A stretch of 64,000 bases of DNA, from NCBI RefSeq assembly GCF_044324785.1, contig NZ_CP172127.1. The stretch is one strand, 5' to 3'. The DNA comes from Escherichia coli. Lineage in GTDB: Bacteria; Pseudomonadota; Gammaproteobacteria; Enterobacterales; Enterobacteriaceae. Shown piece after piece: positions 55,270 to 59,792 of this stretch (position 1 is its first letter; each line of letters opens with the position of its first letter). The translations under genes were made by a program, and so were the position numbers. The notes below the pieces were generated by a model that saw only the letters and a list, made by a program, of their open reading frames with translations, ran no database searches and was not told the DNA's origin.

Positions 55270-55272
55270 GTG

Positions 55273-55306
55273 AAAGCACCTCAAAAGAAGCCTCTTGAGG
55301 TGCTTT
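55273..55306. terminator. Bidirectional stem-loop after btuR and after the convergent 102-aa ORF
   Basis: AAAGCACCTCAA ... TTGAGGTGCTTT. Confidence 0.7.
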
Positions 55307-55320
55307 AATCATGATTATAT

Positions 55321-55629
55321 TCAAGCGGCAATAGCGAAATTCAGAATACGTGTAATCTCATTCAAATGTCCCTGATATGCTTCATGATTCTCAGCGTCAA
55401 CATCTTCAATAAATAATATCAGTTCAGTAATTAACGCATTAGCATCGTCATAATTTATCCCGGCTAACTCTGGCGAAGTTTCAGTACCGTAGTTAATCGT
55501 CAGGTTGTTCATAACTGTGAGGATATGGATAAAATATTTATGACAAACATTACATGTGGTTTTATTACCCAAAGTATTATACAGCATATCAAGTAATGCC
55601 AGTATTCTACGGTTTTGCACATCGTTCAT
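55321..55629 (-). CDS. Hypothetical 102-aa cytoplasmic protein, no recognisable domain
   Basis: AGGAGG ribosome-binding site about 8 bp upstream; 10 bp downstream of the lipoprotein gene (operon); AT-rich. Confidence 0.6.
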   Translation of the reverse strand: MNDVQNRRILALLDMLYNTLGNKTTCNVCHKYFIHILTVMNNLTINYGTETSPELAGINYDDANALITELILFIEDVDAENHEAYQGHLNEITRILNFAIAA

Positions 55630-55639
55630 AAAAAGCCTC

Positions 55640-56641
55640 CTATAACATTATTCCGCTGGCAATAAGTAATTTTGCCAGCCCCTCAGACGCCTTTAACCCA
55701 CTAATGACCTGTGCGCGTAATATTTCATTTAATCTTTTTTGTTCAGCTGCCGTGCGTGTTTTATTAACGTATAAGCTTTTCAGATAATCACCCTTATCTA
55801 TAAAGGCATTTAAAGCCTCAATCGCAGGCATGGCAGGTGCCGATGCCTGTAGTCTGGTTTCATTCACATTGATTACTGAACTTAGAAACTCCTTCCTGTT
55901 TTTCAGAGTGTTAAACTCTGTATTCTTAGAGTTTTTAGATGCCGTATTATAATAAAACATATTATCATGCACATTCGCAAAGGTATAATTTTCAATCTTA
56001 TTGCTTTTTGTATAAATATCATTGCGCAAAACTGCCATGTTCTTTATAAGTCTTACCCAGTTTTCATCTACCGTTTTGCCTATTTTTCCAGAATTGACTT
56101 TAATTATATATAACTCATTGAAATAATTTACCAAATCTTTAACCGCTGCTGCAGATTGAGCTAAATCTTTGCTATGTGAAACACCAAGTAGTGTTTGTGC
56201 GTTGTTTGCGTGATCCAGAGCCTGTTTAAGTAATGCCACTTGCTGACTTTCCGTAGTTGCCATATCCTTTGTCAGAAGTTCCACATAAGCGCTCATGCTA
56301 TTAATGACTTCCATTGAAGCCAGTAATTTTTCTTTCTCGAAAGGGACTAATTGTACTTGTTTTGTATTTGGCCCTGAACGCTGGCATAATTTTCCGCCAT
56401 TCCCATCACCGCCTATATCAATGGTATAATCAGGTCGCAGGGCACAATCCGGATTAGTCGCGTAGAAATTAACAAGGAAGTTTTCACGAGAAGCATAGTA
56501 TTGTTTAAAGAAACTTGCATTCGCCGCTACTGCTTTGTTACCCGCAGTAATAACAGTTTCAGCTTGTTCGTTTTTCAATGCTTCAGTTGCACAACCTGAA
56601 AGCATTAACAGCGATAGAAATATTCCACTATATCTAATCAT
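55640..56641 (-). CDS. Hypothetical 333-aa lipoprotein, no recognisable domain
   Basis: Signal peptide with lipobox LSGC; GAGGTGG ribosome-binding site; AT-rich coding sequence unlike the flanking genes. Confidence 0.65.
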   Translation of the reverse strand: MIRYSGIFLSLLMLSGCATEALKNEQAETVITAGNKAVAANASFFKQYYASRENFLVNFYATNPDCALRPDYTIDIGGDGNGGKLCQRSGPNTKQVQLVPFEKEKLLASMEVINSMSAYVELLTKDMATTESQQVALLKQALDHANNAQTLLGVSHSKDLAQSAAAVKDLVNYFNELYIIKVNSGKIGKTVDENWVRLIKNMAVLRNDIYTKSNKIENYTFANVHDNMFYYNTASKNSKNTEFNTLKNRKEFLSSVINVNETRLQASAPAMPAIEALNAFIDKGDYLKSLYVNKTRTAAEQKRLNEILRAQVISGLKASEGLAKLLIASGIML

Positions 56642-56770
56642 AACCCACCTCTTGACGTTGAGTTTATCTCAGATAATTAAATAGTAATGTGGCTATTTCC
56701 GGGTATTATTCATAAGCAAGTATGAAATTAAATTAAAATACTGCGACTATTTATCATGCTTCAAATGAAG

Positions 56771-56795
56771 AAAAGGCCCCGCAGGGCCTTTATTT
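56771..56795 (-). terminator. Rho-independent terminator after rluB
   Basis: AAAGGCCC-cgca-GGGCCTTT with T-rich flanks on both strands. Confidence 0.75.
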
Positions 56796-56810
56796 TATAC
56801 TTATCTTAAA

Positions 56811-57896: not shown

Positions 57897-59792
57897 TTAC
57901 CAACCACCACCGCCTCCGCCACCCGCACCGCCGCCAGCACCACCACCGGAATAGCTTCGCCCCAACAAACTGGTATAGGCCCCGCAACTCAGGTGCGTCT
58001 GCAATGAGAATAAAACGCCACTACGGGCAATTTCCGGGGCGCTAACAGCCGCTGTGAGTGATGGGGTGATACGTTCTGCCCATTCTCTGCCAAGGTTTGC
58101 CGAGACCGCCCAACCTAACAATGCGTAATCCAGTTTCCGTGTTTCCCCTTTCCGCCGCCGCCCACTGTGTGTTGCCGCCTCTTTACGCGCAAGATAGTTA
58201 ACGATAGCTTCGCCGTGGGCATAACGTTGCTGCCCAGTTTGGGTAAACTTTGGCAGAAAAATATACCCAATGCCAGTGAGATAACCGGTCAGGAAAACAG
58301 AGCTAAAATAACCCGCTGGCATATACCAGTAAAAGAATACATCTCCGACATTGATATAGAGAGAATAGAAGGCCACGCCTGAACAAATCAGTGGTAAAAA
58401 CAAAGTGATGATTACACGATTAACGCAAGGCTTGTCATCATCGCGGGCAAACAAAAGCTCAAGGGAACAAAATAAGAAAGGAAGAAGCCAGCAGATCATA
58501 ATAAACATATCGCCTACCAGACTCATTCCTGCCCAGCCTACGGGACTCAGGTTACCGTAGAGAATGACCGCCAATATTGCCATTCCGCCCCATTGCAAAA
58601 ACGCATCAGGTCGGTAAAACGAAGACTTTTTACGCGGCAGATAAAATTTCTGCATCCGTAAAAATGCACTGCGTAAGACTCTGTTGCGTCTCCCCGTAAG
58701 AACGACCTTATCGCCTTTACGAAATAACGCTTCCAGTAATAACTGCTCTGCGGGCAGTAATACCGCATTATTTCTGGTCGCGCCTTCATTAACACGAATC
58801 AGGATTTGCTGGTTCTTGTCATACTGATCTTTCAGATGAATTTTGCCTTTCACAATCAGATTTACGATATCGGCACAAAAACCTTTATCGTCGTAAACCA
58901 GTTTCGCATCGAGACGTAACATGCCGGGCGTGTAATCTGGCGGAATGACATCGGTTTCAATCACATCTACCGGCGTAAATTGTGGCCTGCGCTTCCAGAG
59001 ATATAACCATCCACACGCCAGGAACAGACACGGAAACCAAATTAACAACGATGACGTAGAGGGTAAAAGAAGATGGCTGAAAATATTCGTCGTTTGTGGT
59101 GCCGAGGCATTACCAAGTAAAGCGTGAGGCCAGCGGTAGAGGACCGTGAAGTCTTCACGATAAAACGGATCGCGGGATTCAATTCTTCCGTCCTCAAGGA
59201 TGCGGCCATTTCGATATGTGTCGCCCTCTTCTCCAGTAAAGAGATCAATTTCGCTAAATGGATTACCCGCAATATCAGGCAACTGGAGAGAAAATCGGGT
59301 CTTATAGATTTCAAACGGCCACTTGTTACCGGTCACGTTCCAGATTAACAGATCTGAATCTCCCTCACGCAGGAAAGCATTTTTAACCTGATAATGAATT
59401 TGATAATGATAGTCGCCTTGAGGCAAGAAACGTTGTTTATCGCCCACGACAATACTCATTAACCCGATATGCCAGTCAAGATGCCAGGGTTCAGGAATAC
59501 CATCACGGGTGACGCCAACAATATGATAGTTCAGCAGTGCAGCGTCCCCATTAGGCTGCATCCATAGTCGTGGTAAATCACGATAAAATCCGTGCTTAAT
59601 CTGCTGATTTCGCGCCTGAAAATGAATGTTCTCTTTGATGTCGAGCACCCCATCCAGTTGCAGGGTGGCTTCAACATCAAAGAGCGAGATCCCTTCTTCA
59701 TAAAAAGGGATCTCCGTGTTTTTCGGATAACTCAACGAAGAGAAAAAAAGCCCAACTATCAACAGCAAAATGCAGCGATATATCCCTGCCAT
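57897..59792 (-). CDS. yciQ: DUF2207-family membrane protein YciQ
   Basis: 631 aa; several transmembrane segments; C-terminal poly-Gly/Ala tail. Confidence 0.8.
   Translation of the reverse strand: MAGIYRCILLLIVGLFFSSLSYPKNTEIPFYEEGISLFDVEATLQLDGVLDIKENIHFQARNQQIKHGFYRDLPRLWMQPNGDAALLNYHIVGVTRDGIPEPWHLDWHIGLMSIVVGDKQRFLPQGDYHYQIHYQVKNAFLREGDSDLLIWNVTGNKWPFEIYKTRFSLQLPDIAGNPFSEIDLFTGEEGDTYRNGRILEDGRIESRDPFYREDFTVLYRWPHALLGNASAPQTTNIFSHLLLPSTSSLLIWFPCLFLACGWLYLWKRRPQFTPVDVIETDVIPPDYTPGMLRLDAKLVYDDKGFCADIVNLIVKGKIHLKDQYDKNQQILIRVNEGATRNNAVLLPAEQLLLEALFRKGDKVVLTGRRNRVLRSAFLRMQKFYLPRKKSSFYRPDAFLQWGGMAILAVILYGNLSPVGWAGMSLVGDMFIMICWLLPFLFCSLELLFARDDDKPCVNRVIITLFLPLICSGVAFYSLYINVGDVFFYWYMPAGYFSSVFLTGYLTGIGYIFLPKFTQTGQQRYAHGEAIVNYLARKEAATHSGRRRKGETRKLDYALLGWAVSANLGREWAERITPSLTAAVSAPEIARSGVLFSLQTHLSCGAYTSLLGRSYSGGGAGGGAGGGGGGGW

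Follow-up and report, generated by a model that had tools for sequence, protein, structure and literature searches.

A polymorphic two-gene cassette encoding a predicted lipoprotein and a small acidic partner between rluB and btuR of Escherichia coli

The DNA analysed here is a 64,000-nt stretch from Escherichia coli (NCBI RefSeq assembly GCF_044324785.1, contig NZ_CP172127.1). We call the full stretch the window, and all coordinates refer to it. Between rluB and btuR, the window carries a variable cassette (55270–56810, minus strand) that takes the place of the rluB–btuR spacer of K-12. In MG1655 the two genes are only 39 bp apart, and the bases between them are unrelated to the cassette. The 1541-bp segment has a GC content of 0.367, compared with 0.505 across the window. 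Windowed GC is 0.30–0.43 inside the segment and 0.50–0.56 in the flanks, and GC at third codon positions is 0.32–0.33 in both cassette genes versus 0.46–0.55 in rluB, btuR, yciK, and sohB. A first-pass annotation of the window had described an AT-rich segment between btuR and rluB, a minus-strand pair of genes for 333- and 102-residue proteins 10 bp apart, hairpins on both sides, and nothing comparable in K-12. Each of these features is found, and one of the two hairpins lies just outside the start coordinate given there.

The upstream gene (55640–56641, minus strand) encodes a 333-residue prolipoprotein, and the downstream gene (55321–55629, minus strand) encodes a 102-residue partner. The partner gene begins 10 nt past the end of the lipoprotein gene. 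At the junction (55630–55641, minus strand), an AGGAGG sequence (55641–55636) overlaps the TAG stop codon of the lipoprotein gene and is separated by 6 nt from the ATG of the partner gene; this ribosome-binding site, previously described as near-perfect, is in fact perfect. The two genes are translationally coupled. The Shine-Dalgarno region of the lipoprotein gene (AGAGGTGGG, 56644–56652, minus strand) contains AGGTGGG, which is conserved in Citrobacter. Further upstream, 68–85 nt from the lipoprotein ATG, lies a perfect palindrome, TTCATA-N6-TATGAA (56709–56726), a candidate operator. The palindrome occurs once in the window, where chance predicts 0.12 occurrences. Every Escherichia locus has an exact copy and Citrobacter a copy with one mismatch, despite saturation of the synonymous sites of the coding sequence between Escherichia and Citrobacter. 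The palindrome bears a loose resemblance to an EvgA box.

The cassette is bounded by two hairpins. On the rluB side is the G+C-rich hairpin of the rluB terminator (56772–56791), which is symmetric, can be read on both strands, and is conserved in Citrobacter. On the btuR side, a hairpin with a 15-bp stem (55273–55306; −22.3 kcal/mol, z = −5.1) lies between the partner stop and the btuR stop and is a putative shared terminator. The terminator consensus scan misses it because it has no strong T-run. A strict sigma-70 scan finds no minus-strand promoter for the cassette, Rfam finds no RNA family in the region, and no att-like, direct, or terminal repeats are present around the cassette. The model of the small RNA SraG gives a weak match at 56667–56794 (plus strand; 21 bits against a gathering score of 50, E = 0.97), which overlies the AT-rich upstream region and the rluB terminator and is almost certainly due to chance.

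Judging from its sequence, the upstream gene product is a prolipoprotein of the Sec/SPII type. It begins with a short, positively charged and hydrophobic signal peptide (MIRYSGIFLSLLMLSG-C17; N-terminus MIRYSGIFLSLLMLSGC, then A), and its lipobox, LSG-C17 with Ala at position +2, fits the pattern [LVI][ASTVI][GAS]C. All 29 aligned family members have the lipobox Cys, within the variants LSGC, LTGC, LSAC, or VGC. The mature part of about 316 residues is soluble and basic, with an isoelectric point (pI) of 8.9. The first-pass annotation had pictured an Asn/Lys-rich, helical protein with the lipobox LSGC; the lipobox and the composition (31 Asn and 27 Lys) agree, and the helicity comes from an AlphaFold model of low confidence (predicted local distance difference test score, pLDDT, 46) that is all-helical save for one β hairpin. 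Because of this pLDDT, the Foldseek matches of the lipoprotein (template modelling (TM) score ≤0.27) carry no weight. In particular, the matches to AhlB, ClyA, and Hbl, with TM scores of 0.14–0.26 on such a model, are meaningless. Membership in the ClyA family is also not indicated otherwise: the predicted hairpin is hydrophilic, and Pfam gives no match.

The alignment of the 29 family members tells more than the model. Only the lipobox Cys, Cys66, Cys86, and Tyr119 are invariant. Cys66 and Cys86 flank the most variable and indel-rich stretch of the protein, where the ratio of nonsynonymous to synonymous divergence (dN/dS; Nei–Gojobori method, here and below) peaks at 0.71 (alignment columns 61–100). 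The region from Cys66 through Cys86 to residue 100 (56342–56446, minus strand) includes the predicted β hairpin and the hypervariable loop (residues 73–100). This arrangement suggests an exposed loop clamped by a disulfide, and hence a periplasmic or surface location. The alignment shows no conserved residue of a catalytic type, indicating that the lipoprotein is probably a binding protein and not an enzyme. In addition, the mature part of no family member contains a transmembrane-grade segment (maximum 19-residue hydropathy of the window protein, 1.12).

The partner is acidic (pI 4.6) and has no signal peptide. It is modelled as a four-helix bundle (pLDDT 88.6), and Foldseek searches of the PDB and AFDB50 with this model return generic four-helix bundles only, none at E ≤ 0.001. 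The structure prediction and Foldseek searches that had been recommended for both proteins are thus uninformative for the lipoprotein and generic for the partner. The motif C26-x2-C29-H30 and H88 are invariant in the Escherichia and Citrobacter partners, and together they could form a metal site; distant partners lack this conservation. In Pfam, the 102-residue protein gives a single signal, zf-FCS, at E = 0.14. The first-pass annotation had stressed a layout of a secreted protein with a small partner. The small partner gene does adjoin the lipoprotein gene, but the pair is split between compartments, with the lipoprotein predicted to be periplasmic and the partner lacking a signal peptide.

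Neither product had been assigned to a recognised family, and our searches agree. For neither window protein is there a match in Pfam, NCBIfam, PADLOC, or PHROGs, a match in PADLOC-DB v2 at E ≤ 1, or a significant match in the PDB by sequence-profile search. What appears is noise at the level of the signal peptide, for example phrog_890 'lipoprotein' at E = 0.13. Ten distant members searched against NCBIfam and PADLOC yield nothing significant, PADLOC giving sub-threshold noise only. The literature, queried by RefSeq protein accession, flanking genes, and guessed CFT073 tags, contains no published account of the rluB–btuR cassette that we could find. The lipoprotein and its partner belong to a previously undescribed family.

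A basic large protein with a small acidic partner encoded behind it invites comparison with polymorphic toxin/immunity systems, in which the lipoprotein would be an outer-membrane toxin delivered by vesicles or contact and the partner a cytoplasmic immunity protein. The gene order, the translational coupling, and the charge complementarity (pI 8.9 versus 4.6) speak for this explanation, as does the partner being a small four-helix protein like the colicin Im proteins. In colicin and pyocin nuclease–immunity units, likewise, the gene for a basic large protein is directly followed by one for an acidic four-helix protein of about 90–100 residues. However, the large protein of the cassette is a predicted Sec-exported lipoprotein with a conserved disulfide pair. 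Its two invariant Cys imply folding in the periplasm, out of reach of a cytoplasmic immunity protein. The cassette has no lysis gene and no match to a nuclease domain, and the partner matches neither PF01320 (Colicin_Pyocin) nor any other immunity family. More generally, no Pfam match and no toxin domain is found among the 29 family members, no toxin or immunity domain is detected in any member, only three Cys and one Tyr are invariant with no conserved catalytic-type residue among them, and there is no hydrophobic segment for pore formation.

To determine how the cassette is distributed, we searched 5426 complete E. coli genomes by megablast and separately counted contiguous junctions of the K-12 type, the survey of the btuR–rluB junction that the first-pass annotation had recommended. 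The cassette is present in 1237 genomes (23%), and an empty K-12-type junction is present in 4182 (77%). Carriers and empty sites together account for 5419 of the 5426 genomes, and the locus is therefore a clean two-state polymorphism. Most database copies are full length, and extra-intestinal lineages, among them sequence type 131 (ST131), often carry the module. Conserved core sequence with host-typical GC is accordingly not what lies here: presence is patchy, and the GC content is the 0.367 given above. In a few E. coli genomes the cassette is interrupted by IS1 or IS200C, which may reflect sporadic inactivation. In one hit, NZ_CM143910.1 (strain E06), a cassette reading frame is labelled 'amino acid kinase family protein', probably an annotation oddity.

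The cassettes of E. coli fall into at least three allele classes. Type A, the type of the window (333-residue lipoprotein), is found in 424 genomes; type B (340-residue lipoprotein), as in ST131, in 776; and type C, a minority, in the remaining ~37. The 170 bp upstream and the first ~72 codons are common to all classes, with about 96% DNA identity, and the remainder has diverged beyond the reach of megablast. Between classes, the lipoproteins are 65–67% identical and the partners 73–92% identical. The synonymous divergence (dS) between classes is 0.9–1.3, compared with 0.10–0.24 for rluB and btuR of the same strains, indicating that the alleles are far older than the surrounding chromosome. 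The dN/dS is 0.16–0.24 for the lipoprotein, 0.11–0.16 for the partner, and 0.01–0.07 for the flanking genes. At such low ratios, the cassette genes are real, functional, and under purifying selection. Type C is a mosaic, with its own lipoprotein centre and a type-A C-terminus from about residue 290, and its partner is type-A-like (92% identical). In this class, then, the partner does not seem to track the variable part of the lipoprotein.

These allele data bear on the toxin/immunity explanation in both directions. Presence/absence and deeply diverged alleles are in its favour. However, the centre of the lipoprotein varies and both termini are conserved, the opposite of the toxin architecture with a conserved N-terminal and a variable C-terminal part, and allele C joins a different lipoprotein centre to a type-A partner. 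The same data bring in another explanation, in which a surface or periplasmic lipoprotein alters the envelope (serum or bile resistance, adhesion, or antigenic variation) with the help of the cytoplasmic partner, and its diversity is driven by host immunity and not by phages. Conserved termini, a variable centre, and a hypervariable loop do resemble variable surface antigens, and the frequency of the module in extra-intestinal lineages such as ST131 fits. Bor and Lom, encoded by prophage morons, are envelope conversion factors, which also counts for it. On the other side are the family members in free-living Methylomonas, Chlorobi-like, and high-GC environmental bacteria described below, which argue against a role specific to animal hosts. 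We consider this host- or niche-related role improbable.

The gene order rluB, lipoprotein, partner, btuR also occurs in E. albertii, E. whittamii, and a Citrobacter species. The E. albertii allele is type-B-like (85% amino acid identity) with a dS of 0.82, similar to that of its flanks; the E. whittamii allele is type A (98% identity); and the Citrobacter cassette is 51–55% identical. Among 100,044 GTDB species representatives, close relatives are present only in E. whittamii and E. albertii. Since the same rluB–btuR site is occupied in several Escherichia species and in Citrobacter, the cassette is not a recent insertion. It is an old, trans-specific polymorphism of presence/absence and multiple alleles in Escherichia, whose alleles have presumably been swapped through homologous recombination in the flanks. 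The first-pass annotation had proposed a horizontally acquired module. The AT-rich composition and the occurrence of relatives on mobile DNA fit that proposal, but the shared site and the old alleles do not fit a recent insertion in Escherichia, so that 'horizontally acquired' holds in the deep past only. In the E. albertii type strain NBRC 107761 (L029, 2898–3916), the lipoprotein gene matches in two reading frames, reflecting a frameshift or sequencing error near residue 235.

Beyond these genera, a word-indexed protein search finds Escherichia and Citrobacter sequences only. An exhaustive profile search of 1.84 billion representatives gives 59 matches, about 35 of which are full-length lipoproteins of 324–357 residues at 15–25% identity. 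Named relatives come from Buttiauxella, Raoultella, Klebsiella, Rahnella, Pantoea, Methylomonas, a metagenome-assembled genome of Chlorobiaceae, and high-GC metagenomic bacteria; none has an annotation beyond hypothetical protein. The pairing is retained: we read the contigs of nine distant relatives, and in eight of them, including those of Buttiauxella, Raoultella, Pantoea, Methylomonas, Chlorobi-like, and other metagenomic bacteria, a helical protein of 96–107 residues is encoded ~2–45 nt after the lipoprotein gene. In the ninth (L014, 2171–2980), the partner has 269 residues with 3–4 C-terminal transmembrane helices. In Buttiauxella, both members of the pair are homologues of their window counterparts (E = 7e-20 and 2e-7). 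A comparison of the enterobacterial partner profile with the distant one gives no match (hhalign E = 0.13), and a profile search with all partners finds no fused domains. In Methylomonas (L015, 3719–4960) and the Chlorobi-like genome (L030, 4864–5910), the gene directly upstream of the pair encodes a protein of several transmembrane helices that also has a signal peptide and an Ig-like (TIG) domain. These proteins and the transmembrane-fused partner of L014 resemble each other in architecture but show no significant BLASTP similarity. They hint at an inner-membrane third component.

We examined about eight genomic contexts of these relatives for association with defence genes and mobile DNA. 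In Buttiauxella, a P2-like prophage carries the pair as an AT-rich insert (35% versus 58% GC) in its gpS–gpV gap, the site of the non-essential orf30 in P2 itself. Only this position is common to the two; orf30 of P2 stands alone and is read from the other strand, and tblastn of the Buttiauxella homologue against a phage collection that includes P2 finds nothing at E ≤ 1e-3. The Buttiauxella homologue is the only one that qualifies as a phage moron; no prophage surrounds the window copy. In Raoultella, the copy is part of an island that also carries an integrase, AlpA, an insertion sequence (IS) element, AbiC-like and HicB genes, and the candidate defence gene PDC-S15 (E = 1e-52). Another copy adjoins a colicin-DNase/immunity pair, an IS3 element, and TacA, and the Methylomonas copy is near VapBC and Fic.

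The colicin-DNase/immunity neighbour of one relative adds to the case for toxin/immunity, and so does the SitA/SitI system. In Myxococcus, the gene of the outer-membrane lipoprotein toxin SitA is immediately followed by its immunity gene, on prophage-like elements (PMC5562445). As in the cassette, an outer-membrane-type lipoprotein gene precedes that of a small cytoplasmic protein, and the loci are polymorphic, associated with mobile elements, and present or absent between strains (PMC5562445, PMC8546572). In contrast to SitA/SitI, however, the cassette family has no detected C-terminal toxin domain or immunity family, its variable part is central, its partner seems not to co-vary (allele C), and it has neither a sitB-like gene nor TraAB. 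No delivery system is linked to the cassette. E. coli is not known to have TraAB-type outer-membrane exchange, which also counts against a toxin of this kind. We rank the toxin/immunity explanation second and regard it as unlikely.

The neighbours of the relatives also raise addiction or abortive infection. Here the lipoprotein would be a latent effector that damages the envelope, and the partner an antitoxin or sensor that, for example, retains the precursor until export and frees it upon phage infection or loss of the element. Such a system would account for the tightly coupled two-gene layout, for the VapBC, Fic, TacA, HicB, and AbiC-like genes near relatives, and for carriage by mobile elements. 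However, the module is cleanly absent in 77% of E. coli and chromosomally fixed where present, with no mobile element to stabilise, the proposed effector has no membrane-active or enzymatic signature, and the distant partners are not detectably homologous to the E. coli partner. This explanation seems to us about as improbable as a host-related role.

The last alternative is an ordinary accessory of envelope housekeeping, for instance a dispensable, fast-evolving periplasmic lipoprotein whose role is structural or related to stress, accompanied by a regulator or chaperone. In accordance, the neighbours of some relatives are metabolic and transport genes, no mobile element being close by, and the conserved palindrome upstream suggests a place in a host regulon. 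Against it stand the patchy distribution and the AT-rich composition in every host examined. Furthermore, the alleles are about ten-fold more divergent than the flanks and cross species, which is unexpected for a neutral dispensable gene. We consider it the least probable of the readings.

Taken together, the cassette is very probably a real, selected, and novel two-gene accessory module. From its sporadic distribution, its deviant composition in every host, the neighbourhoods of some relatives, rich in mobile, defence, or toxin–antitoxin genes, and its deep balanced diversity focused on a loop, we infer a conflict-type system. Presence in 23% and absence in 77% of genomes, together with old alleles that cross species, look like a signature of balancing selection. 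Among the explanations considered, our first choice, though one that we hold with low confidence, is a non-enzymatic module for envelope exclusion or defence that is maintained by balancing selection, because the lipoprotein looks like a non-enzymatic binder folded in the periplasm and a moron of a prophage is among its homologues.

Such a module might work as follows. The lipoprotein would be anchored in the outer membrane facing the periplasm, as the Ala at +2 suggests, or exposed at the surface, and would be stabilised by a disulfide made by DsbA. Acting through binding and not catalysis, it would block or sense an agent that enters via the envelope, most plausibly at the phage receptor or injection step; bacteriocins or conjugative DNA are other possible targets. 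The variable loop would make the contact, and frequency-dependent selection would keep it diverse. The role of the cytoplasmic partner would be that of an obligate co-factor, such as one that holds or doses the precursor before export. Alternatively, the partner may provide a link to an inner-membrane component, as in the fused and three-gene versions of distant relatives.

Known exclusion systems offer partial parallels. Like the cassette lipoprotein, the exclusion lipoproteins Llp of T5, Cor of phi80 and HK022, Ltp of Streptococcus thermophilus TP-J34, and TraT of F are accessory cargo with a lipobox. The Buttiauxella homologue is likewise prophage cargo, and the loop diversity fits a contact surface. 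TraS/TraT is likewise a paired, two-gene unit of envelope exclusion. In contrast to the exclusion lipoproteins, the cassette protein is much larger, with a mature helical domain of 316 residues and a soluble cytoplasmic partner, and the E. coli cassette is chromosomal, at a fixed junction of core genes, and not on a phage or plasmid. It has no sequence or profile similarity to them in Pfam, NCBIfam, or PHROG, and is thus not a member of their families. The resemblance of the cassette to exclusion lipoproteins, to SitA/SitI, and to colicin–immunity pairs is one of layout only.

Several observations weigh against exclusion or defence. Neither window protein is homologous to any known exclusion or defence protein, and PADLOC is negative. 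Llp, Cor, Ltp, and TraT are smaller and work alone, so simple masking of a receptor leaves an obligate cytoplasmic partner unexplained. The fold of the lipoprotein, modelled at pLDDT 46, lends no support. The Pantoea and Chlorobi-like copies lie among ordinary chromosomal genes. No relatives are found in INPHARED (queried with the Buttiauxella homologue) or IMG/VR (three queries), so that the prophage context comes from one species. Finally, deep allelic divergence fits toxin/immunity or antigenic variation equally well.

A few records from the same chromosomal neighbourhood need comment. CP054249.1, CP054253.1, and NZ_CP134663.1 (4.9 Mb) are filed as plasmids and carry the trpL–rluB–btuR chromosomal region; they are mislabelled or misassembled chromosomal sequences. 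An apparent 'plasmid' homologue of 33% identity in CP054249.1 is really a frameshift-ridden chromosomal fragment and is rejected as a divergent allele. On the other side of rluB, E. coli has yciQ (57897–59792; GC 0.47), which separates rluB from yciO and encodes a 631-residue DUF2207 protein whose C-terminal tail is rich in Gly; the annotation of strain N3 marks the gene as frameshifted. The E. albertii and Citrobacter loci lack yciQ, and in them rluB comes directly after yciO. The gene may be a second lineage-specific insertion in this neighbourhood.

About a quarter of sequenced E. coli, including the pandemic ST131, carry this pair of genes, annotated as two hypothetical proteins. A clean present/absent state with alleles older than the species is the usual signature of conflict genes such as phage receptors and defences, bacteriocins, and surface antigens. 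The boldest form of the exclusion or defence proposal, which we put forward as rather doubtful, is a new class of envelope-level conflict system. In it, a disulfide-clamped, hypervariable periplasmic lipoprotein would recognise an agent on its way in, assisted by a cytoplasmic partner and, in some lineages, an inner-membrane component; a balanced polymorphism spanning species would keep the module at a single chromosomal site throughout Escherichia and Citrobacter, with occasional capture by prophages or islands. If exclusion or defence is the function, the cassette would represent an envelope-acting, non-enzymatic type that is missing from current defence catalogues, and it could affect the host range of phage therapy in clinical lineages. 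If toxin/immunity is the function, lipoprotein-borne antagonism would extend to enterobacteria. Whichever reading holds, the empty site of K-12 provides a ready isogenic test bed.

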